IMG/VR virus record: IMGVR_UViG_2778261689_000009
Coordinates: 1 to 11,799 of that record
Reading direction: 5' to 3' (one strand)
DNA from: a virus
Taxonomy: Duplodnaviria > Heunggongvirae > Uroviricota > Caudoviricetes
Length of the DNA: 11,799 nt
Positions 1 to 11,799 of the stretch are shown here, in pieces. Position numbers and translations under genes: made by a program. The notes beneath the pieces are model-generated. The model searched no databases. It was not told where the DNA came from and worked only from the letters and a program-made list of their open reading frames with translations. Positions within the stretch are counted from its first letter, which is position 1, and each line of letters starts with the position of its first letter.

Positions 1-432
1 CATTTGATCATATGACAAGATGTGTATCCACCTTAACTTAATGATTTTTACCAAAATCATTAGGGGATTCATCAGCACCAAGCCTATTCTGATAATATCC
101 TTATTGAGTTCTTTATGGATATCAACCACACTATCGAAAACTTCTTGAAACAAATGTAAGTCTACCTCTTGCTCAGAATCCATACGTTCAAAAAACAAAT
201 CACATCTCTGCAGTGAGCATTGAACTCTAAATTTATTATCTATAGAAAACAATTGGAGACGAGGAATCTCTGGTGGGGTATCCATAGGTAAAACGCCCAA
301 CATCATATTGTTTGTTAATTCAATACCTGCCTTCTTTTTAAAAGTTTGCCTAATAAAATACGACATTCCATCGAAATCGACAGTCGTTGATGAATCGTAA
401 AAAAATACCATTTGTAACTGTATGATTTTCAT
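1..432 (-). CDS. Hypothetical protein, AT-rich accessory gene, C-terminally truncated by the window edge (at least 144 aa)
   Basis: Not in the ORF track because it has no in-window stop. Reverse-complement ATG at 430-432 opens a frame that runs uninterrupted to position 1 (MKIIQLQMVFFYDSSTTVDFDGMSYF...). The region is visibly AT-rich compared with neighbouring P. It lies downstream of P, where lambda has ren. No recognisable family. Confidence 0.45.
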   Translation of the reverse strand, partial: MKIIQLQMVFFYDSSTTVDFDGMSYFIRQTFKKKAGIELTNNMMLGVLPMDTPPEIPRLQLFSIDNKFRVQCSLQRCDLFFERMDSEQEVDLHLFQEVFDSVVDIHKELNKDIIRIGLVLMNPLMILVKIIKLRWIHILSYDQM

Positions 433-584
433 CCTATATTCCAGGTTTCAGCAATTTAAATTTGGCGCATTATTCTAGCTTACAACAGCAACATTTTTGA
501 AGGGCTTTGCTAAAACTTTTATTCTCAGTGGCATTAATTTCAACCAATAGGACCTGAACAGAAAAAAACATAAAAATCAATGCA

Positions 585-1307
585 TTATTTCGAAATCTTT
601 TTATATAATGCTTTTCCCCCTTTCAGCCCAAACTTAGCTTTGATTTCTGCGATCTTCGCCAGAGCCTGTGCACGATTTAGAGGTCTACCGCCCATGACAG
701 GAAGCTGTTTTACTGGTTCAGGTATCGCCTCACCACGGTTAATTCGCGCGGTCATACAGGACAGTTCATCGGCAGCCTTGCGCCGTAATTCCGCATCAGT
801 AAGCGCATTGGCCCGCATGTTCTGGTACAGGTTGGTAACCAGCCAGTAGTGCGCGTTTGATTTCCATGGATAAGACTCTGCGTCCGGATACAGGCCACGC
901 TTCCGGCAATACTCGTAAACCATATCAACCAGCTCGCTGGCGTTTGGCAGCCCGGCGGTAACGGATGCTTCTTCCCGGCACCAGGCAACAAACTGCCCGG
1001 GTGATGGCAGGAATGGTCGATTCTGCCGACGGGCTACGCGCATTCCTGCGTTAACCTGTTCCATCGTGGTGATCCCGTTTTCCCGGAAAGCCAGAACCCA
1101 CTGGCGGCGGATTTCGTTCAGTTCGTTCTGGTCCCGGTTAGCCAGGCTCGCCGGGAAAGTTGCCAGTAACTGGCTGAACACACCATTGATGATCTGCGCT
1201 ACCTGTTGTACCTGCGGCTTTTCGTCGTACTGTTCCGGCATGTTGTTGGCGATCCGGCGCATCTGCTCACGGTCAAAGTTAACCATCTGTGCGGCGATGT
1301 TTTTCAT
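585..1307 (-). CDS. P: Replication protein P (DnaB helicase loader), lambda P-like
   Basis: 240-aa translation MKNIAAQMVNFDREQMRRIANNMPEQYDEKPQVQQ... matches lambda P over almost the whole length as I recall it; the last ~10 residues differ. Start overlaps the O stop in an ATGA (rev-comp of 1304-1307). Confidence 0.9.
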   Translation of the reverse strand: MKNIAAQMVNFDREQMRRIANNMPEQYDEKPQVQQVAQIINGVFSQLLATFPASLANRDQNELNEIRRQWVLAFRENGITTMEQVNAGMRVARRQNRPFLPSPGQFVAWCREEASVTAGLPNASELVDMVYEYCRKRGLYPDAESYPWKSNAHYWLVTNLYQNMRANALTDAELRRKAADELSCMTARINRGEAIPEPVKQLPVMGGRPLNRAQALAKIAEIKAKFGLKGGKALYKKISK

Positions 1308-2233
1308 AAATCCACCCCGTAAATCCAGTCAGTGTTTGTCAGGTCGAGTTTTGATTTTCCGGCTGTCACGCCAGCCTGTTGCTTGTTACGGTTGATTTCG
1401 AGTTGGGTCCACTTGTCGCGGAGTTTGGCCGGACTTAGCACGTTACCGGACCAGAAGTTGTCCTGGCATGCCCAGCGGAACAGTACACACATATCGCGGT
1501 GGTTACGTCCGTCACGTTCACGCATCAGGCGGATATCGTTAGCCCACCCTGCAAAATTCGGTTTTCTGGCTGATGGCGCGATGGTCTTCACCATGTCAAA
1601 CATCCACTCTGCGGCGGTCAGGTCTTCTGCTGTCCCCCACCTGCTGCCGCTCTGAATTGCAGCATCTGGTTTCTCCACAGGAAGATCGTTTTCTGGTTGG
1701 TCAGAGGATTCGCCAGAATTCTCGGACGAAAAAGGTTTTATATTGTCTTTTGTTAGTTTGTCTTTTGTGTTTACCTGATTCGGGTAAACGCCTTTACCTG
1801 ATTTGGGTAAACTTTTCTTACCTGATTCAGGTAAATTTACCTCTTTCAGGTAAACTTTATTTTTCTTACCTGATTCGGGTAATGTTGACCATTCACTGAC
1901 CACATTATTAATGCCTATATTCCGCCCGCTCTGAATAAAAATCCCACGCTTTACCAGAGCACTTTTTGCAGCAGAACACTTGTGCGGCAATATCCCGGTC
2001 AACTCGGAAAGTTGCTCGTTGCTCACCCAATCCAGTTTTTTATTAAAGCCATATGTTTTGCGCATGACAGCCAGAAAGACCAGAAGCTGGTGCTGTGTTA
2101 ATCCGGCCAGCATCACAGCTTCCAGCAACTCATTTGCAATGCGCGTATAACCATCATCGAGATCTGCCACGCGCGGCTCCTTTTGTGCCGCATCCGGCAC
2201 TGGAAAATTGAATATCTCAGCAGTGTTTGCCAT
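1304..2233 (-). CDS. O: Replication initiator protein O, lambda O-like
   Basis: Similarity to lambda O begins at MANTAEIFNF...VADLDDGY; ATG at 2233-2231 is preceded by GGGAGG (rev-comp of 2238-2243). The track ORF extends to an ATG at 2323 that overlaps the upstream gene's stop (ATGA), so a 339-aa form is possible. Iteron-encoded repeats LPESGKK/LPKSGK lie mid-protein. Confidence 0.85.
   Translation of the reverse strand: MANTAEIFNFPVPDAAQKEPRVADLDDGYTRIANELLEAVMLAGLTQHQLLVFLAVMRKTYGFNKKLDWVSNEQLSELTGILPHKCSAAKSALVKRGIFIQSGRNIGINNVVSEWSTLPESGKKNKVYLKEVNLPESGKKSLPKSGKGVYPNQVNTKDKLTKDNIKPFSSENSGESSDQPENDLPVEKPDAAIQSGSRWGTAEDLTAAEWMFDMVKTIAPSARKPNFAGWANDIRLMRERDGRNHRDMCVLFRWACQDNFWSGNVLSPAKLRDKWTQLEINRNKQQAGVTAGKSKLDLTNTDWIYGVDL
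1772..1882. repeat. Replication origin iterons: five copies of a ~16-bp palindromic TACCTGATTCGGGTAA-like repeat, flanked by an AT-rich tract at ~1735-1770
   Basis: Copies at 1772-1787, 1795-1810, 1819-1834, 1838-1853 (diverged) and 1867-1882, each of TACC...GGTA form, inside the O coding sequence as in ori-lambda. The adjacent T-rich tract tattgtcttttgttagtttgtcttttgtg fits a DNA-unwinding element. Confidence 0.75.
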
Positions 2234-2319
2234 AATTCCTCCCGCAATGAGTGCATTACGATTTGCACCTGAAAGTCGGTTCTGTTCCCGCAGACCGGCT
2301 TTCGCCATTTCTGAACCTG

Positions 2320-2865
2320 TCATATTGCCCCCAGCATGGTGGTAACCATCGCCATCAATGGACCAGCCAGATCAGGATCCACACGAAACATCGACACAAT
2401 GCCTTCACTCATCTCCTTCAGTTTCTGGTGGCGTGGTGCGTTGAGAATGACCGCCTGTTTTGCCTCGCTGAGCTCCTTTTCCATTTCAGCCAGTCGAGCC
2501 ATGAAGCTATCCTGCTCAACCAGGTGGCCGCGATATTTCAGCGGTAGTACTGCCAGAATTGCTGGAGTCAGTTCACGCACGTTATTTCGGTATTTTTCAG
2601 AATCGAATTTGTTATCGAGAAAGCGGAACAGCTTCTGGCGTGCACGACTGACATCATCAGGAAAATCGATAGTGCCGCCGCCCTGTGCTCGATACTCATT
2701 CACAATGAGTGCGGCAACAACATCCTGATTATCTGCAGCCGACCAGGCGCGGACGGCATCACGGATTTTTTCGTGGCCTGGAGCTTGTTTTGTTTGAGAA
2801 CGATTTATCACCGCAGTCGGGCTAAATCCGCTAGTCTGTTGGTATGTAAGTGGTTGCATAGTCAT
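2320..2865 (-). CDS. YdaT-like protein (Rac-prophage type) occupying the cII position
   Basis: 181-aa ORF between the Cro-like gene and O, same strand. From memory it shares short motifs with E. coli Rac YdaT (EYRAQGGG, LTPAILAVLP); unverified. Its stop overlaps an ATG at 2323 (ATGA). Confidence 0.55.
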   Translation of the reverse strand: MTMQPLTYQQTSGFSPTAVINRSQTKQAPGHEKIRDAVRAWSAADNQDVVAALIVNEYRAQGGGTIDFPDDVSRARQKLFRFLDNKFDSEKYRNNVRELTPAILAVLPLKYRGHLVEQDSFMARLAEMEKELSEAKQAVILNAPRHQKLKEMSEGIVSMFRVDPDLAGPLMAMVTTMLGAI

Positions 2866-2889
2866 TGCCTTATCAGTTAACGCCGCAGT

Positions 2890-3117
2890 TTAGGCGGCAG
2901 AATTACTCGCGTTAAACAATGGTGCGAGGTCGGGACGAATATCTGCTGGTTTAATCTTTCCACCAGTGGCTGAGACAATTTTCATTACATAGCGGGCATC
3001 AATTCCGCCACCGTGTAGCCAACGCCAAACAGTGGGTTGGGCTACACCGCATAGATCTGCCAGTCGTTTTTGACTACCTGTAATACTGATTGCGAGTTGA
3101 ATGGTTTGATTTGTCAT
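2890..3117 (-). CDS. Cro-like helix-turn-helix regulator (YdaS/Cro family)
   Basis: Small HTH protein (MTNQTIQLAISITGSQKRLADLCGVAQPTVWRWLHGG...) divergent from the CI-like repressor. The track uses a TTG at 3123; the ATG at 3117-3115 with an upstream AGGA is preferred. Confidence 0.75.
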   Translation of the reverse strand: MTNQTIQLAISITGSQKRLADLCGVAQPTVWRWLHGGGIDARYVMKIVSATGGKIKPADIRPDLAPLFNASNSAA

Positions 3118-3123
3118 TATCAA

Positions 3124-3227
3124 TTCCTATTGGTATTGCAATGAACAAATAATAGCAATGCGTATTAACCATAGCAATAGCAAAACGTGTTTTGACCATC
3201 GATACGCAAGCGTATAAATTAAAACTT
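3124..3227. promoter_or_regulatory. oR-like immunity control region with divergent promoters: pR-like (minus; -35 TTGCTA rev-comp of 3172-3177, 17-bp spacer, -10 TATTAT rev-comp of 3149-3154) and pRM-like (plus; -35 TTGACC 3192-3197, -10 ATAAAT 3214-3219)
   Basis: Hexamers and spacers read directly from the sequence. Repeated ATAGCAAT motifs (3152-3159, 3171-3178), palindromic ATTGCAAT (3135-3142) and near-palindrome CAATGCGTATTA (3156-3167) are candidate operators; the same motifs recur at 4926-5000. Confidence 0.5.
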
Positions 3228-3920
3228 ATGAAAAAAGAAACTCTTGCTGATCGCTTAAACCTAGCGATGGAACAATCTGGAATGTCTCAAGGCGCTCTTG
3301 CAAAGGCGTCTGGTGTAGCTCAACCCACAATCTGGAGACTGACAAGCGGCAATGCACGCGGATCTACAAGAATTGTCGAAATCGCTAATGCACTTGGGGT
3401 TCGCACTGAATGGCTTTCCTCAGGCATAGGCCCTATGAGGGATAATGGCGTTCAGCCAGGAAAACCGGCGACCTGCTCTTCCAAATACTTCAAGATTGAC
3501 GTTCTTGATATGGAAGTAAGTGCAGGGCCAGGCGTCATTAACCGTGAGTTCGTTGAAGTTTTGCGATCGGTTGAGTACTCCCATGATGATGCGCGTCACA
3601 TGTTTGATGGCCGCAAAGCAGAAAACATCCGCATCATTAACGTGCGTGGCGACAGCATGTCAGGAACGATCGAACCAGGTGACCTGCTGTTCGTCGATAT
3701 CAGCGTCAAATCGTTCGACGGCGATGGGATTTATGCGTTCCTCTACGACGAAACCGCTCATGTAAAACGTCTGCAAATGATGAAGGATAAGCTGCTGGTT
3801 ATCTCTGATAACAAGAGCTACTCACCGTGGGACCCGATCGAGAAAGACGAGATGAACCGAGTGTTCATCTTCGGGAAAGTCATCGGGAGCATGCCGCAGA
3901 CGTACAGGAAGCATGGATAA
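3228..3920 (+). CDS. CI-like prophage repressor: N-terminal HTH plus C-terminal LexA/S24 autopeptidase domain
   Basis: HTH segment MSQGALAKASGVAQPTIWRL; candidate Ala-Gly cleavage site in EVSAGPGV; S24 catalytic motifs VRGDSMSGTIEPGDLLFVD and HVKRL. Start taken as ATG 3228 (the track's 3192 is a TTG), which lies ~8 nt after the putative -10. Confidence 0.9.
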   Translation: MKKETLADRLNLAMEQSGMSQGALAKASGVAQPTIWRLTSGNARGSTRIVEIANALGVRTEWLSSGIGPMRDNGVQPGKPATCSSKYFKIDVLDMEVSAGPGVINREFVEVLRSVEYSHDDARHMFDGRKAENIRIINVRGDSMSGTIEPGDLLFVDISVKSFDGDGIYAFLYDETAHVKRLQMMKDKLLVISDNKSYSPWDPIEKDEMNRVFIFGKVIGSMPQTYRKHG

Positions 3921-3995
3921 AAATCTTGCTATTTATATTCATGAATACCTGCCCCCTGATTAACTCCACGCATCACTTGATATAAGGCACCAAAA

Positions 3996-4394
3996 ATGAG
4001 TAATGATGACAAATCTGTAAGTGATGAAGTATCTGATTTTCATAATAAAGTGAAAAATATTACAACCGCTCAATTTTCTGCATATTTAAAGCATGTTGGG
4101 GCAAATCATAACTGCTTATCTTGCGGTAAGGCTGAACTTATAGCAGTGCAAGACTGGCATTGGGATAAATTCAACAGCAAGGAAGGGAAAACAGATCTTA
4201 ATAATATTGAAAAATATACTGTTTTAAGGCTTTACAAGGTTGATGCTCCACATAGTAATGAGCAATGGAATATGACAAAAGAAAACCTAATGGATTATGA
4301 GTTTAGAGTGATATGCAAACATTGCGGATTCGTTACAAGTTATTTGGCATGGCTTGTTTTCTACTGGCTAAAGAATAACGAAGTTGACCAATAA
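3996..4394 (+). CDS. Hypothetical protein with two CxxCG knuckles (possible zinc ribbon); first gene of the immunity-region cassette
   Basis: 132-aa ORF with Cys40/Cys43 (CLSCG) and Cys107/Cys110 (CKHCG), an acidic N-terminus and an aromatic-rich C-terminus (YLAWLVFYWL). Clearly AT-rich relative to the flanking repressor and Red genes. Weak AAGG upstream. No recognisable family. Confidence 0.6.
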   Translation: MSNDDKSVSDEVSDFHNKVKNITTAQFSAYLKHVGANHNCLSCGKAELIAVQDWHWDKFNSKEGKTDLNNIEKYTVLRLYKVDAPHSNEQWNMTKENLMDYEFRVICKHCGFVTSYLAWLVFYWLKNNEVDQ

Positions 4395-4414
4395 TGACAT
4401 CCGGGCCAGAATAA

Positions 4415-4807
4415 ATGAATCCTTTTGATAATATTGCTCCTCTTTTCCCTGAGGGGGATGATAGAAATAACCATAAAAACGGTGGTAGTGATGGTGGGGG
4501 GAATGGCATGCTCGAGGTCAGAGTTGCAAAACTTGAAGCCGACGTTGAAAACATCAAGATAAACTTAGCGGAAACTCGCGCGGATGTGAGAGAGCTGACA
4601 AAAATTACCTCTTCTATAAAAACTGATGTTTCTACGATACTTCAAAAACTTGTAGATATTGACGAAAAGTTATCTCATAAAGCAAGTAAGGATTTTGTCG
4701 AAGTAAAAACAGGTAATTTAAAGGCTTGGATGCTCGGAATTCTTCTCTTATCCGTTGCAATGCCAGTCATAACTTTGCTCGTAAATTTATACATGAAAAA
4801 AACATAA
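4415..4807 (+). CDS. Hypothetical coiled-coil protein with a single C-terminal transmembrane helix (tail-anchored; XhlA-like architecture)
   Basis: Gly-rich N-terminus (GGSDGGGNG), heptad-like central region (LEVRVAKLEADVENIKINLAETRADVRELTKI...) and hydrophobic C-terminus AWMLGILLLSVAMPVITLLVNLYMKKT. An internal ATG at 4508 preceded by a GGGGGGAA run is an alternative start (99 aa). Confidence 0.6.
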   Translation: MNPFDNIAPLFPEGDDRNNHKNGGSDGGGNGMLEVRVAKLEADVENIKINLAETRADVRELTKITSSIKTDVSTILQKLVDIDEKLSHKASKDFVEVKTGNLKAWMLGILLLSVAMPVITLLVNLYMKKT

Positions 4808-4832
4808 CCCGGCCACCGCGCCGGGTTTTCTT
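4808..4832 (+). terminator. Rho-independent terminator closing the cassette
   Basis: GC stem CCCGGC (4808-4813) / GCCGGG (4820-4825) with a 6-nt loop, then TTTTCTT, immediately after the stop at 4805-4807. An A-run at 4793-4799 could allow bidirectional function. Confidence 0.65.
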
Positions 4833-4925
4833 CCCCCCTTCCCCAACACACTCAACGTCTAAAAAACAACCACAATCTCACTTCAGCTATCGCTACGCGA
4901 TGCAAACCACAAAATAAATTCTTTT

Positions 4926-5003
4926 TGCTATCAATGATTTAATAACCAATCGCATCAAGCAATAACAATACGTATTGATATAGCCAATAGCAATAGCTAT
5001 TAT
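4926..5003 (+). promoter_or_regulatory. oL/pL-like region: candidate pL (-35 TTGATA 4975-4980, 17-bp spacer, -10 TATTAT 4998-5003) overlapped by operator-like repeats
   Basis: Perfect 12-bp palindrome CAATACGTATTG (4966-4977), ATAGCAAT (4987-4994) and TTGCTAT (4926-4932) match the motifs at 3135-3178. The promoter faces the gam-bet-exo-xis-int genes. Confidence 0.5.
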
Positions 5004-5288
5004 CATTCCATCGCAACGACACAGCGATGGGGCAACCACCAGTTCACCCGCTTCACCGTTGCGATGACCGCTTAGATCCGCAGCTTGAATTTCAGCAGGT
5101 TCCGGGGAGTGCGAGGGGTGAAACGGACGTGTGAACGTCGGTGTGACCATCTGGAATCAACTCAACACTTCATACCTCAGTCGCTTCACCGAGGCGGCTT
5201 AGTTATGACTAACGGCGGCCATCCACCGCCAGATTAAGCGCAGAAGTCTTCATATGTTCAGCAGCCCAGCTTACGGGCAGGAGTTTTT

Positions 5289-5495
5289 ATGGTTCATCAA
5301 CATTACGGCACTCAGACCGTCAATCGCGGTGCCGTCCGGCCAGGAATGCTGGTTAAGCACAAAGATGGCACCTGGACAGCATCAGCTAATTTACGCGGTC
5401 GGCTTTATCTACACCGCGGTATCGAGCGCACCTACACCCGTGATTTGCTCGTAGAAGTTTTTCTCGATGGGCGCGGCAACGGCCTGAATCACTAA
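5289..5495 (+). CDS. Hypothetical small protein in the kil position, immediately upstream of gam
   Basis: 68-aa ORF with a good RBS (AGGAG, 5 nt before the ATG at 5289). I do not recognise it as lambda Kil or N. The overlapping 5254 frame lacks an RBS. Confidence 0.5.
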   Translation: MVHQHYGTQTVNRGAVRPGMLVKHKDGTWTASANLRGRLYLHRGIERTYTRDLLVEVFLDGRGNGLNH

Positions 5496-5570
5496 TCCCC
5501 TTTCCTGTTTTCCTAATCAGCCTGGCATTTCGCTGGCGATATTTTCACAGCCATTTTCAGGAGTTCAGCC

Positions 5571-5867
5571 ATGAACGCTTATTACATTCAGGATCGTCTT
5601 GAGGCTCAGAGCTGGGCGCGTCACTACCAGCAGATCGCCCGTGAAGAGAAAGAGGCAGAACTGGCAGACGACATGGAAAAAGGCCTGCCCCAGCACCTAT
5701 TTGAATCGCTATGCATCGATCATTTGCAACGCCACGGGGCCAGCAAAAAAGCCATTACCCGTGCGTTCGATGACGATGTTGAGTTTCAGGAGCGCATGGC
5801 AGAACACATCAGGTACATGGTTGAAACCATTGCTCACCACCAGGTTGATATTGATTCAGAGGTATAA
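5571..5867 (+). CDS. gam: Gam, host RecBCD nuclease inhibitor (lambda Red gamma, short form)
   Basis: Translation [60 protein letters not shown]...[10 protein letters not shown] is nearly identical to lambda GamS from memory; AGGAG RBS upstream. Confidence 0.92.
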
Positions 5868-5872
5868 AACGG

Positions 5873-6658
5873 ATGAGTACAGCACTCGCAACGCTGGCTG
5901 GGAAGCTGGCTGAACGTGTCGGCATGGATTCTGTCGACCCACAGGAACTGATCACCACTCTTCGCCAGACGGCATTTAAAGGTGATGCCAGCGATGCGCA
6001 GTTCATCGCATTGTTGATCGTCGCCAACCAGTACGGCCTTAATCCGTGGACGAAAGAAATTTACGCCTTCCCTGATAAGCAGAACGGCATCGTTCCGGTG
6101 GTGGGCGTTGATGGCTGGTCCCGCATCATCAATGAAAACCAGCAGTTTGATGGCATGGACTTTGAGCAGGACAATGAATCCTGTACATGCCGGATTTACC
6201 GCAAGGACCGTAATCATCCGATCTGCGTTACCGAGTGGATGGATGAATGCCGCCGCGAACCATTCAAAACCCGCGAAGGCAGAGAAATCACCGGACCGTG
6301 GCAGTCGCATCCCAAACGGATGTTACGGCATAAAGCCATGATTCAGTGTGCCCGTCTGGCCTTCGGATTTGCGGGTATCTATGACAAGGATGAAGCCGAG
6401 CGCATTGTCGAAAATACCGCATACACTGCAGAACGTCAGCCGGAACGCGACATCACTCCGGTTAACGATGAAACCATGCAGGAGATTAACACTCTGCTGA
6501 TCGCCCTGGATAAAACATGGGATGACGACTTATTGCCGCTCTGTTCCCAGATATTTCGCCGCGACATTCGCGCATCGTCAGAACTGACACAGGCCGAAGC
6601 AGTGAAAGCTCTTGGATTCCTGAAACAGAAAGCCACTGAGCAGAAGGTGGTAGCATGA
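5873..6658 (+). CDS. bet: Bet, single-strand annealing protein (lambda Red beta)
   Basis: 261-aa translation [66 protein letters not shown]... matches lambda Beta essentially end to end; its stop overlaps the exo ATG (ATGA at 6655-6658). Confidence 0.95.
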
Positions 6659-7335
6659 CACCGGACATTATCCTGCAGCGTACCGGGATCGACGTGAGAG
6701 CTGTCGAACAGGGGGATGATGCATGGCACAAATTACGGCTCGGCGTCATCACTGCTTCAGAAGTTCACAACGTGATAGCAAAGCCCCGCTCAGGAAAGAA
6801 GTGGCCTGACATGAAAATGTCCTACTTCCACACCCTGCTGGCTGAGGTTTGCACCGGTGTGGCTCCGGAAGTTAACGCTAAAGCGCTGGCATGGGGAAAA
6901 CAGTACGAGAACGACGCCAGAACCCTGTTTGAGTTCACTTCCGGCGTAAATGTTATTGAATCCCCGATCATCTATCGCGACGAAAGTATGCGCACCGCCT
7001 GCTCTCCCGATGGTTTATGCAGTGACGGCAATGGCCTTGAGCTGAAATGCCCGTTTACCTCCCGGGATTTCATGAAGTTCCGGCTCGGTGGTTTCGAGGC
7101 CATAAAGTCGGCTTACATGGCCCAGGTGCAGTACAGCATGTGGGTGACGCGAAAAGATGCCTGGTACTTTGCCAACTATGACCCGCGCATGAAGCGTGAA
7201 GGCCTGCATTATGTCGTGATTGAGCGGAATGAAAAGTACATGGCGAGTTTTGACGAGATGGTGCCGGAGTTCATCGAAAAAATGGACGAGGCACTGGCTG
7301 AAATTGGTTTTGTATTTGGGGAGCAATGGCGATGA
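6655..7335 (+). CDS. exo: Exo, 5'-3' dsDNA exonuclease (lambda Red alpha)
   Basis: 226-aa translation [65 protein letters not shown]...GFVFGEQWR matches lambda exonuclease with a few substitutions. Confidence 0.95.
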
Positions 7336-7490
7336 AGCATCCTCACGATAATATCCGGGTAGGCACGATCACTTTCGTCTACTCCGTTACAAAGCGAGGC
7401 TGGATATTTCCCGGCCTTTCTGTTATCCGAAATCCCCTGAAAGCACAGCGGCTGGCTGAGGAGATAAATAATAAACGGGGGGCTGTATGA
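7332..7490 (+). CDS. Hypothetical small protein (52 aa), translationally coupled between exo and the methyltransferase
   Basis: ATG 7332 overlaps the exo stop (ATGA) and its own stop overlaps the methyltransferase ATG (ATGA at 7487-7490); [52 protein letters not shown]. Below the ORF-track cutoff; coding status rests only on the coupling geometry. Confidence 0.3.
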
Positions 7491-8044
7491 CTGATTTCAC
7501 CGGAAGCAATACTCCTGCCGAACATCGCGACAGCTGGCGCACACCACCAGAGATTTTTGCTGCGCTTAATGCAGAGTTCGTTTTTCAACTTGATGCTGCC
7601 GCCAGCGAAAAAAACCGACTATGTCGGCTTTTTATCTCACAGGAGCAGAACACATTAACCACTTCATGGCCTGAAGCAATGGGATATGCCTCTGGTTATG
7701 TCTGGTTGAATCCACCATACAGCAATATTTCCCCTTTTGTGAAAAAGGCAGCCACTGAAAACAAATTCAGTAGTGTGGGATGTGTAATGTTATTGCCTGC
7801 TGACACATCTGTCGGATGGTTTCATGAAGCGATACAAACCGCCAGTGAGGTCAGATTCATCACGGCAGGACGACTGGCATTTATTAACCCGCTCACTGAG
7901 AAACCCGTCAGTGGAAATAATAAAGGCTCGATGCTCATTATCTGGCACCCATACCCCCGTACACACTGCCACTTTACGACCGTTGATCGTGGAGAGTTGA
8001 TGGCGTTCGGCTCAAGGATTCTTGCCCGTCGGGAGGCTGCATGA
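7487..8044 (+). CDS. Phage orphan DNA N6-adenine methyltransferase (Dam-like)
   Basis: 185-aa ORF with the amino-methyltransferase catalytic tetrapeptide NPPY (YVWLNPPYSNISPF). No adjacent restriction endonuclease candidate. Size and position resemble orphan methyltransferases in other enterobacterial prophages. Confidence 0.8.
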   Translation: MTDFTGSNTPAEHRDSWRTPPEIFAALNAEFVFQLDAAASEKNRLCRLFISQEQNTLTTSWPEAMGYASGYVWLNPPYSNISPFVKKAATENKFSSVGCVMLLPADTSVGWFHEAIQTASEVRFITAGRLAFINPLTEKPVSGNNKGSMLIIWHPYPRTHCHFTTVDRGELMAFGSRILARREAA

Positions 8045-8979: not shown

Positions 8980-9301
8980 GGCCTGTCAGTTTCTCAAGAT
9001 ATCCAGACCTACCGCTACCAACTGGATACGAACAGGCCGCCTACAGGCAACACGCAAAGACCCCACAAAACTAAAATCTCCTTACCTCACAACACGACAA
9101 GCCTGCATTGCGGCGCTTCAGTCTCCGCTGCATACTGTCCAGGTGAGCGCGGGTGATGGCATAACAGAGGAAAGAAAATGTCACTCTTCCGCAGAAGTGA
9201 AATATGGTACGCCAGTTTCACATTGCCGAACGGTAAAAGATTTAAACAGTCTCTTGGAACAAAGGACAAAAGGCAGGCGACAGAGCTCCATGACAAGCTA
9301 A
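8951..9301 (+). CDS. xis: Excisionase, P22 Xis-like
   Basis: [36 protein letters not shown]... resembles P22 Xis from memory; RBS AGAGGT before ATG 8951 (the track's 8921 start adds 10 residues with no RBS). Overlaps the int start. Confidence 0.8.
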
Positions 9302-10341
9302 AGGCTGAAGCATGGCGGGTCAGCAAACTTGGTGAAATACCTGATATGACGTTTGAGGAAGCGTGTGTCAGGTGGCTCGAAGAGAAAGCACATAAGAAAT
9401 CACTGGACGATGACAAAAGCCGGATCGGATTCTGGCTTCAACATTTCGCAGGGATGCAACTAAGAGACATTACTGAATCAAAAATTTATTCAGCAATGCA
9501 GAAAATGACGAACCGGCGTCATGAGGAAAACTGGAAACTCAGGGCAGAAGCATGCAGAAAAAAAGGGAAACCTGTTCCAGAATACACGCCAAAACCAGCG
9601 TCCGTTGCAACGAAGGCTACGCATCTTTCATTTATAAAGGCCCTACTAAGAGCCGCAGAGCGTGAATGGAAAATGCTGGATAAGGCACCAATTATTAAAG
9701 TGCCTCAACCAAAGAATAAACGGATCCGCTGGCTGGAGCCCCATGAAGCACAAAGGCTGATTGATGAATGTCCGGAGCCATTAAAGTCTGTTGTTGAATT
9801 TGCACTGGCAACAGGCTTAAGACGCTCGAACATCATCAACCTTGAATGGCAACAAATAGATATGCAGCGCCGGGTGGCATGGATAAACCCGGAAGAGAGT
9901 AAATCAAACCGCGCAATCGGCGTTGCGCTGAATGATACTGCATGTCGCGTTTTGAAAAAACAAATCGGGAATCATCACCGTTGGGTATTTGTGTACAAGG
10001 AAAGCTGTACCAAACCAGACGGAACGAAAGCGCCAACAGTAAGGAAGATGCGGTATGACGCAAACACAGCCTGGAAAGCGGCGCTGAGACGAGCAGGTAT
10101 TGATGATTTCAGATTTCACGACTTGAGACACACCTGGGCAAGTTGGCTGGTTCAAGCCGGAGTCCCGTTGTCAGTGTTACAGGAAATGGGAGGCTGGGAG
10201 TCTATCGAAATGGTTCGTCGATATGCTCACCTCGCACCTAATCACCTTACCGAACATGCACGGCAAATAGACTCGATCCTGAACCCATCGGTCCCAAATT
10301 TGTCCCAGTCAAAAAATAAGGAAGGTACTAATGATGTGTAA
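9178..10341 (+). CDS. int: Tyrosine integrase, P22 Int-like (thrW-specific)
   Basis: 387 aa, [53 protein letters not shown]..., very close to P22 Int as I recall it; tyrosine-recombinase motifs HDLRHT and VRRYAHL present; ends 15 bp from the tRNA. Confidence 0.95.
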
Positions 10342-10355
10342 CTTATTGATTTTAA

Positions 10356-10431
10356 TGGTGCCGATAATAGGAGTCGAACCTACGACCTTCGCATTACGAA
10401 TGCGCTGCTCTACCAACTGAGCTATATCGGC
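10356..10431 (-). tRNA. thrW: tRNA-Thr (anticodon CGU), thrW, including 3' CCA; phage attachment target
   Basis: Reverse complement reads GCCGATATAGCTCAGTTGGTAGAGCAGCGCATTCGTAATGCGAAGGTCGTAGGTTCGACTCCTATTATCGGCACCA, a 76-nt cloverleaf-compatible tRNA with anticodon loop TTCGTAA. The 3' end faces the integrase. Confidence 0.92.
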
Positions 10432-10545
10432 CCTGAAAGGACATGTTCACGAACGTGAATCACGGTGGACAAGGTTAAAACTAACCGGGCGATGCGTCAA
10501 TGGCCTTGTGAATCAAATGGCTACTTTTGCATCACCCGGTTTTAT

Positions 10546-11799
10546 TTACGCACGAATGGTGTAATCACCAATGCCGATCCACTTGTAAGTGGTCAGTGCT
10601 TCCAGCCCCATTGGGCCACGCGCGTGGAGTTTTTGTGTGCTTACCGCCACTTCCGCACCCAGACCAAACTGGCCGCCGTCGGTAAAACGCGTAGAGGCGT
10701 TAACGTAAACAGCGGACGAATCCACTTCGTTAACAAAACGCTGGGCGTTGCGCATATCGCGGGTCAGGATCGCATCGGAGTGTTGTGTGCCGTGTTCACG
10801 AATATGGGCGATGGCATCGTCAAGATCGCTGACGATTTTGACGTTCAAATCTAATGACAGAAACTCATCGTCATACTCTTCGGCTTTAACAGCAACCACC
10901 TTCGCAGGGCCTGCCTGCAACTGCGCCAGTGCAGCTGCATCTGCGTGTAATGTCACGCCGCTTTCCGCCATTTGTTTGCTTAATGCGGGCAGGAAGCTAT
11001 CGGCGATGTTTTTATTCACCAGCAACGTTTCAACCGTATTACATGTGCTCGGACGCTGAGTTTTCGCGTTGACGATCACTTTTAATGCTTCAGCGATCTC
11101 TACACTTTCATCAACGTAAATATGGCATACGCCTATACCACCTGTGATCACCGGGATTGTCGACTGTTCACGGCACAGTTTATGCAAACCAGCGCCACCA
11201 CGCGGGATCAGCATGTCGATGTATTTATCCATACGCAGCATTTCACTGACCAGCGCACGGTCAGGATTATCAATCGCCTGCACGGCACCCGCCGGTAAGC
11301 CGCAGGATTTCAGGGCGTCCTGAATCACCGCCACCGTTGCAGCGTTAGTGCGACACGTTTCTTTGCCACCGCGCAGGATCACCGCATTACCGGTTTTCAG
11401 GCACAGCGAAGCGACATCAACCGTCACGTTCGGGCGCGCTTCATAAATCACGCCAATAACCCCCAGCGGTACGCGACGACGCTCAAGACGCAGGCCGCTG
11501 TCCAGTACGCCGCCATCGATTACCTGCCCCACCGGATCGGCGAGGTTGCACACCTGACGTACATCGTCGGCAATGCCTTTCAGCCGTGCGGGCGTCAGTG
11601 CCAGACGGTCAAGCATCGCTTCGCTAAGGCCATTGGCTCGCGCGTCAGCAACATCCTGGGCGTTAGCGTTGAGGATGATTTCGCTTTGTGCTTCCAGTTC
11701 ATCGGCGATTTTTTCCAGCACGCGATTTTTTTCGCGGCTGGAGAGTTGCGCTAATTTATACGAGGCTTGCTTCGCGGCAATGCCCATTTGTTCCAGCAT
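10546..11799 (-). CDS. proA: Gamma-glutamyl phosphate reductase (host core gene)
   Basis: 417-aa translation [75 protein letters not shown]... matches enterobacterial ProA; the start codon sits exactly at the window end. Confidence 0.95.

Follow-up and report, generated by a model that had tools for sequence, protein, structure and literature searches.

The left end of the window

The features found at the left end of the window, meaning here the whole 11,799-nt stretch of DNA that was analysed, are collected in Table 1. Following the minus strand, a lambda-type replication gene P is succeeded by an AT-rich spacer, by the beginning of a gene that is here called A, and by one end of the insertion sequence IS10, within which the window begins. 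In intact copies from other genomes gene A is followed closely by a second gene, called B, which in the present case is outside the window.

Table 1. Features at the left end of the window, with one related locus from another genome (last line).
Feature	Position	Strand	Basis or remark
IS10 outside end (IS nt 75 to 1, plus-strand reading)	1..75	-	75/75 against R100
RNA-OUT, 3' part, cut by the window edge	1..30	+	Rfam RF00240
Chimeric open frame (119 native codons and 25 IS10-encoded codons)	1..432	-	Translation compared with the intact protein
First 9 native bases beside the IS end, CACCAAGCC, presumed IS10 target site	76..84	.	Window compared with E. coli L9
Gene A, codons 1-119 of 221, 5' fragment	76..432	-	100% identical to E. 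coli L9 (L001 6001-6357)
AT-rich spacer from P stop to gene A start, 152 nt	433..584	-	Absent from lambda; identical in E. coli counterparts
Candidate sigma-70 promoter	472..501	-	-35 TTCAAA (501-496), 18-nt spacer, -10 TAGAAT (477-472)
Replaced 3' end of P, codons ~231-240 and stop; recombination junction	585..618	-	Comparison with lambda
Lambda-type replication gene P, 240 aa	585..1307	-	98% identity to lambda P; RefSeq counterparts are replication protein P
Neighbouring features in locus L028 (text, Distribution)	3859-4845 and 4980-6070	- and +	Rugosibacter metagenome-assembled genome

Further along the window, YdaS/YdaT-type genes are found in the cro/cII position (2320-3123, minus strand). 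A further AT-rich island, immediately downstream of a cI-like repressor (3192-3920), holds two ORFs of 132 and 130 aa on the plus strand (3996-4807), in the slot that rexAB occupies in lambda; neither ORF gave a significant match in Pfam or PADLOC. In prophages with identical P and A-B genes, the same slot is filled by DUF4411 with Peptidase_M78, by DUF3800, by a Ser/Thr kinase, or by ASCH with a 353-aa protein. A Dam-family methyltransferase lies at 7487-8044 on the plus strand, and an integrase (9178-10341) adjoins a tRNA-Thr(CGT) (10356-10431). An aldehyde-dehydrogenase-family ORF within 9178-11799 is probably proA, judging by its position near thrW, and the prophage appears to be inserted at thrW.

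The open frame and the IS10 end

The frame that starts with the ATG at position 432 on the minus strand meets no stop down to base 1, giving 144 codons. This had been described in an earlier sequence-only reading as a partial gene open to the window edge, and the translation agrees with that description. When bases 1-584 were shuffled, the longest stop-free run had a mean of 62 codons, and a run of at least 144 codons was reached in just 2 of 5000 shuffles, so that the frame is not a chance outcome of AT-rich DNA. The block in which it lies is indeed strongly AT-rich, as had been reported: the GC content of bases 76-584 is 0.336, compared with 0.535 in P and 0.48 over the window as a whole, and the GC3 is 0.34 against 0.60.

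The frame has two origins. The R100 counterpart of bases 1-75 (NC_002134, 45204-45278), which is part of Tn10 and identical at every position, directly adjoins the IS4-like ISVsa5/IS10 transposase of Tn10, beside tetC; the terminal IS10 sequence ends in CTGATGAATCCCC. From base 76 on, the window DNA is 99.4-100% identical to that of 21 complete E. coli genomes, none of which extends into bases 1-75. The closest counterpart, E. coli L9, is 99.97% identical over window positions 76-6700, and its gene A has 221 codons. The translation of the window frame is native up to ...DIIRIGLV (residue 119), after which the intact protein continues with AVKAELNN... and the window with LMNPLMILVK.... Given that bases 1-75 are the IS10 end, the last 25 codons of the 144-codon frame are IS sequence, and given that the 21 intact counterparts match from base 76 only, the frame consists of 119 native codons and 25 from the IS. 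If the IS is the same as in R100, the fused frame reaches a stop 30 codons past the window edge, for a total of 174 aa.

The sequence-only reading had taken the gene simply to continue leftward. It does not do so: IS10 cuts in after codon 119 of 221, and the open IS10 frame mimics an extension. It is extremely unlikely that the window edge cuts through a foreign gene, otherwise intact, with 144 codons or more. In favour of such a gene are a real gene family and the absence of a stop as far as base 1, but bases 1-75 are IS10 rather than gene A, the intact homologues part from the window translation exactly after residue 119, and the members of the family are all of 214-223 aa and can be aligned over their full length.

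Within the IS end there is a match to the Rfam model RF00240 (RNA-OUT), covering model positions 41-70 of 70 with 32.3 bits and an E-value of 0.005; the score is under the gathering score because the window edge truncates the match. We note that RNA-OUT (and its promoter pOUT) reads rightward into the phage DNA, antisense to the stump of gene A and to P.

A complete IS10 is a 1329-bp element with a transposase gene, and is flanked by a 9-bp duplication of its target site, for which the preference is NGCTNAGCN. The transposase gene would lie beyond the left window edge, encoded by the minus strand, and the IS10 at that edge may stand alone, belong to a full Tn10 or mark where a rearrangement begins. 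One IS10 junction falls within the window, and the second copy of the target would be beyond it. The nine native bases that adjoin the IS end, CACCAAGCC, are the presumed target site, and they match the target preference in part, by about half.

Since IS10 is a multicopy repeat, with thousands of copies of this end sequence across E. coli genomes and plasmids, the question arises of whether the junction could be a chimeric join made at a repeat by assembly or windowing, gene A being intact in the real genome. The single visible junction and a window that begins within the IS would both be compatible with such an artefact. Against this, the join is at the exact terminal base of IS10 (CTGATG...), as it is in a true insertion, the nine adjoining bases partly fit the target preference (which is taken from general knowledge), and repeats usually break assemblies and are seldom fused. 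We regard an artefact as very unlikely.

One other genome should be mentioned here. In E. coli ET12567 (NZ_CP045457.1, 584088-584232), an IS10 end lies about 150 bp or less from a fragment of a P gene, and the two were joined into one match by the search. The likely cause is an unconnected transposition of IS10 into a cryptic prophage.

Gene P and the recombination junction

Over 231 residues gene P shares 98% identity with lambda P, after which it ends in GKALYKKISK, against ASV in lambda. At the DNA level the similarity to lambda, to 434 and to other lambdoid phages ends at about position 618/619. The divergence from lambda of the C-terminal tail of P, which had been noticed from the sequence alone, is thus borne out in the form of a different 10-residue tail after residue 231. 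The AT-rich block had been said to begin just past the P stop; such a block is present, but it begins about 30 bases before that stop. The spacer between P and A (433..584) belongs to the imported cassette. In intact counterparts, the spacer after P together with A and B makes up an island of about 2.1 kb with 27-35% GC, the A-B cassette having a GC content of approximately 31-36%.

The exact 240-aa variant of P has A and B behind it in each of the ten contigs examined, and these cassettes are all intact. As A and B come after the same P tail in every case, the P junction and the cassette travel together. The earlier suggestion of a recombination junction that brought in foreign cargo is therefore upheld, with the junction placed inside the 3' end of P and its tail linked to A-B. 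So is the suggestion that a cargo gene occupies the slot in which lambda has ren and the start of the nin region: the coding frame is real. A lack of conservation in related prophages, together with a stop or frameshift just beyond the window edge, had been named as evidence that would count against it, and gene A is in fact conserved there.

The anatomy of the left end is very probably a replaced P tail and a 152-nt spacer, then the first 357 nt of gene A, and then an IS10 end that takes up base 75 and everything to its left. The AT-rich island is what is left of a two-gene prophage cassette, and the gene that had been thought to be missed by the ORF track is a pseudogene fragment made by IS10.

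Proteins A and B

In E. coli L9 (NZ_CP142044.1, where the cassette and its upstream spacer span 3686184-3687975), gene A (221 aa) is followed after a gap of 14 bp by gene B (319 aa; L001 4718-5677), and across the intact cassettes B starts 10-16 nt downstream of A. In PHROGs, gene A is phrog_24110 and gene B is phrog_25335, the function of both being listed as unknown. The sequences of A and B are already in the databases as hypothetical proteins, and the cassette is without a characterised relative. A search of the literature by accession, PHROG identifier and description found no paper on either protein.

The AlphaFold2 model for protein A has a pLDDT of 89.6 and a pTM of 0.87, and shows a single alpha/beta domain consisting of two similar halves. 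The homologues of A have a mean pairwise identity of 46%. Among 42 aligned members of the family, R76, N168, D191 and N193 are invariant, and Q7, A9, F11, P49, P53, P57, D78, R115 and G117 are nearly so. The pairs R76/D78, R115/G117 and D191/N193 are each at positions i and i+2 on predicted, neighbouring β-strands. Residues two apart on a strand point the same way, so that these Arg, Asp and Asn pairs probably line one face of the sheet, and we infer from the model that they could form a binding or catalytic surface.

The copy in the window is not a complete A-B pair, given that native A ends at codon 119 and that B is outside the window. Its 119 residues carry all of the N-terminal motifs of A (DFDG.SYF, E[IV]PRLQL.S, R76, D78, R115 and G117). 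The stump ends within the central strand 113-125; it has lost the second half of the fold and is without three of the four residues that are invariant in the family (N168, D191 and N193). The loss of half of the fold and of these residues implies that gene A is inactivated in this genome.

Foldseek comparisons of protein A with AdoMetDC/prozyme, TBP and a di-domain cyclase gave TM-scores of at most 0.41, the matches being partial and of low identity, and a comparison with one unnamed viral protein gave 0.56-0.61. Folds resembling AdoMetDC, a guanidino kinase or TBP were considered for A and rejected, as none combined a significant full-length match with the catalytic residues. A sequence-profile search of the PDB found nothing for A, and for B nothing beyond coiled-coil noise. 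Scans of A, B and 10 distant relatives of A against Pfam, NCBIfam and PADLOC 2.0 gave nothing above noise. The homology and structure searches that had been proposed for the frame have produced a conserved family, but no matches by sequence in Pfam, NCBIfam, PADLOC or among solved structures, and no convincing relative in structure for the confident model of A.

The model for protein B is of a different kind. Residues 1-140 are disordered and rich in Asn, Ser and Lys, and are followed by a helix of about 105 residues (145-249), which runs into the first of three transmembrane (TM) helices, with the other two after it. In 25 homologues of B, the mean pairwise identity is 78% for the TM domain, 39% for the long helix and 19% for the N-terminal part (144 residues). 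An identity of 78% across genera is unusually strong for transmembrane helices. The conservation of the TM domain hints at a specific oligomer or at a conserved target in the host.

Two further observations concern incomplete copies of gene A. In draft assemblies of E. coli, many A proteins (P0189-P0201) end at codons 91-159 in native sequence. They were considered as further IS hits and set aside, as the native sequence continues past codon 119; the ends inside gene A are probably due to poor coverage of DNA of 29-32% GC, and not to insertions. In E. coli AHB18 (L032; NZ_OZ546938, 4288-5244), by comparison, an IS1B abuts a shorter stump of A, equivalent to window positions 189-432, and a deletion has removed the remainder of A together with the whole of B. 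This makes two independent IS events in gene A.

Distribution and the wider family

The intact cassette is rare: of 5426 complete E. coli genomes, 21 carry it. A tblastn search with A against 50,697 deposited phage genomes, lambda included, gave no match. In a word-indexed search of 5.8 billion proteins, A was represented by 4 clusters when a single sequence was used and by 13 with the family profile, and B by 26. Those homologues of B whose context was examined (from Citrobacter, Kosakonia, Leclercia and Erwinia) are each directly preceded by a homologue of A of 220-221 aa.

Pairs of A and B are present in prophages of Klebsiella type and in those of Citrobacter, Kosakonia, Leclercia and Erwinia, as well as in IMG/VR contigs. 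They lie most often after O-P; other locations are behind umuDC, NinB or a ParB-like gene, and close to an integrase. At every one of these positions the GC content of A-B is low compared with that of the flanks. A-B behaves like a mobile unit of two genes.

A profile search of 1.84 billion representative proteins extends the family of A much further, to 929 clusters (at 50% identity) with E<=1e-3 and 282 with E<=1e-10, nearly all of the 929 being of 215-240 aa. A distant subfamily, about 20% identical to the A of the window, was looked at through 38 collected loci, 36 of which were assessable. In 35 of the 36, the next gene encodes a protein of 111-153 aa that is rich in Ser/Thr at its N-terminus and has one or more scored TM helices, and in the remaining locus a homologous partner is slightly below the hydropathy cut-off. 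A C-terminal coiled coil is also present in some of these small partners, and in some there is a second TM helix. The start of the partner is at most 4 nt from the stop of A, usually with an overlap of 4 or 1 nt. The result for 35 of 36 loci demonstrates that the pairing of A with a membrane protein having a low-complexity N-terminus is conserved, from Gammaproteobacteria to Clostridia and Streptococcus.

The surroundings of 20 of the distant loci, comprising 116 neighbouring ORFs, are mostly housekeeping genes. Genes of mobile elements are represented by three integrases and a transposase; there are also a prophage lysis cassette and a few defence-type matches. Neighbours of this kind show mobility, but no clear defence-island signal, and lend no support to a role in defence. 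In a metagenome-assembled genome of Rugosibacter (L028, Table 1), a distant A-like gene and its small membrane partner adjoin a tyrosine recombinase in divergent orientation, which from the look of its sequence we take to be an integron integrase. The pair there may, on the basis of this arrangement, be an integron cassette.

Expression signals

The candidate promoter upstream of gene A was found in a scan of the intact counterpart (L001 6426-6397), and matches the consensus at 9 of 12 positions. A comparable pair of -35 and -10 elements is present at the same distance from the start of A in 6 of 8 divergent loci. The AT-rich region as a whole contains 13 promoter-like sites against 9.3 +/- 3.3 in shuffles, which is not above the shuffles. 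No terminator-like site was found on the minus strand between P and A, nor directly after B, the nearest being approximately 455 nt downstream. In view of the uninterrupted passage from P to A, the cassette should be readable from the early rightward operon. The intact cassette would then be expressed in two ways, from this operon and from the promoter-like element of its own. If B persists beyond IS10 in the present genome, the IS lies between B and both its upstream gene and the candidate promoter.

Compared with what is expected of a moron, the cassette differs from its surroundings in composition and has a patchy distribution; its candidate promoter is a conserved consensus match, and no terminator-like site comes directly after B.

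Possible function of the intact cassette

We tentatively suggest, by analogy with two-gene systems in other prophages, that A-B is a prophage exclusion or abortive-infection module, in which a cytoplasmic sensor or enzyme is paired with an effector in the membrane. The intact pair would be a moron-type accessory module, expressed in the prophage from its own promoter. Protein A would be the cytoplasmic sensor or small enzyme, and would control B. Protein B would act as an effector in the inner membrane, which it would damage or gate, and so exclude or abort infection by other phages.

It could be argued that the cassette serves the phage that carries it, either in an early role like that of ren or the nin genes, or through a block of DNA entry of the SieA or HK97 gp15 type, or by modulating lysis or the membrane. 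The location directly after P in the early rightward operon, with no terminator in between, fits this proposal, as the genes would be read from pR in lytic growth, and the near-invariant TM domain of B (78%) would suit a conserved component of the host membrane. However, the cassette is tied to no single position or type of phage, its relatives are also found outside recognisable prophages, and it is both rare (21 of 5426 E. coli genomes) and absent from the 50,697 deposited phage genomes. Given this rarity and absence, dispensable cargo fits better than a core function, and we think it unlikely that the cassette serves the cycle of its carrier.

A second proposal is that A-B resembles an addiction or toxin-antitoxin system, in which B is a toxic membrane protein and A neutralises it, the pair stabilising the prophage or islet. 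The gene order is suggestive, with a small soluble gene and then a tightly coupled gene for a membrane protein, overlapping by 4 nt in distant relatives. So is the setting, a small low-GC islet that is found in prophages, between housekeeping genes and, in one case, next to an integrase of integron type. The two independent IS events in or around A (the one in this window, and the IS1 in AHB18, where B is deleted) can be read in the same sense. On the other hand, A is a well-folded domain of 221 aa whose conserved polar residues are of the sort usually seen in binding or catalytic sites. It exceeds the usual antitoxins in size and conservation, and has no DNA-binding domain for autoregulation. 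Moreover, the loss of A through IS10 should be lethal if B is unopposed, unless the insertion is polar on B. An addiction function is on balance improbable.

Returning to exclusion or abortive infection, a more far-reaching version would be that A and its membrane partner form a large unnamed two-gene family, of at least 929 clusters and ranging from prophages of Enterobacteriaceae to Clostridia and Streptococcus, that represents a new phage-exclusion or abortive-infection system, of which the copy seen here was broken by IS10. In it, a compact alpha/beta protein bearing an invariant Arg/Asp/Asn surface would act together with a membrane protein whose N-terminus is rich in Ser/Thr. This is possible, and in our estimation rather doubtful. 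If A-B is indeed a defence or exclusion system, it adds a new pair of sensor and effector, and makes the P-nin junction a site for cargo alongside the hypervariable site next to cI. As it stands, the family is widespread, with a conserved gene order, and is without annotation in Pfam, NCBIfam or PADLOC or a solved relative, and the cassette occupies a slot of lambdoid prophages in which accessory cargo is swapped. An accessory cassette broken by an IS at a module junction of a lambdoid genome is in itself an ordinary kind of feature.

Comparison with known systems

The break in gene A resembles other insertions of IS10/Tn10, in that the terminal 75 bp are identical, including a part of RNA-OUT, and the site half-matches the target consensus; the difference is that here one end only is visible. 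The position of the cassette, directly after P and before the nin genes, is that of lambda ren. Like the lambdoid morons lom, bor and rexAB, it is AT-rich compared with the backbone and has a candidate promoter of its own. It differs from these in having no similarity to ren, in consisting of two genes rather than one, and in having no clear terminator directly after B.

Among systems with two proteins, Butters gp30/gp31 and Sbash gp30/gp31 are cases of prophage-mediated defence with experimental support (PMC7542560, PMC6426596). They are likewise pairs of a cytoplasmic and a membrane protein expressed from a prophage, and they act on heterotypic phages. They belong to another host phylum, and they rest on experiments, whereas the case for A-B is built on sequence and models.

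A homology of A and B with RexA and RexB was considered and rejected: the hhalign probability is 0.3% for both pairs, and the PADLOC search for RexAB gave no match. In a RexAB-type system of P. putida (PP_5643/5644), RexB is a membrane effector that is stimulated by RexA (PMC12894663). The likeness of A-B to RexA/RexB is one of organisation. Both are two-gene prophage operons that occupy an AT-rich slot for accessory genes in a lambdoid genome, with a soluble cytoplasmic protein encoded first and a multi-pass inner-membrane protein second, and in both the proposed logic is that of a sensor coupled to a membrane effector.
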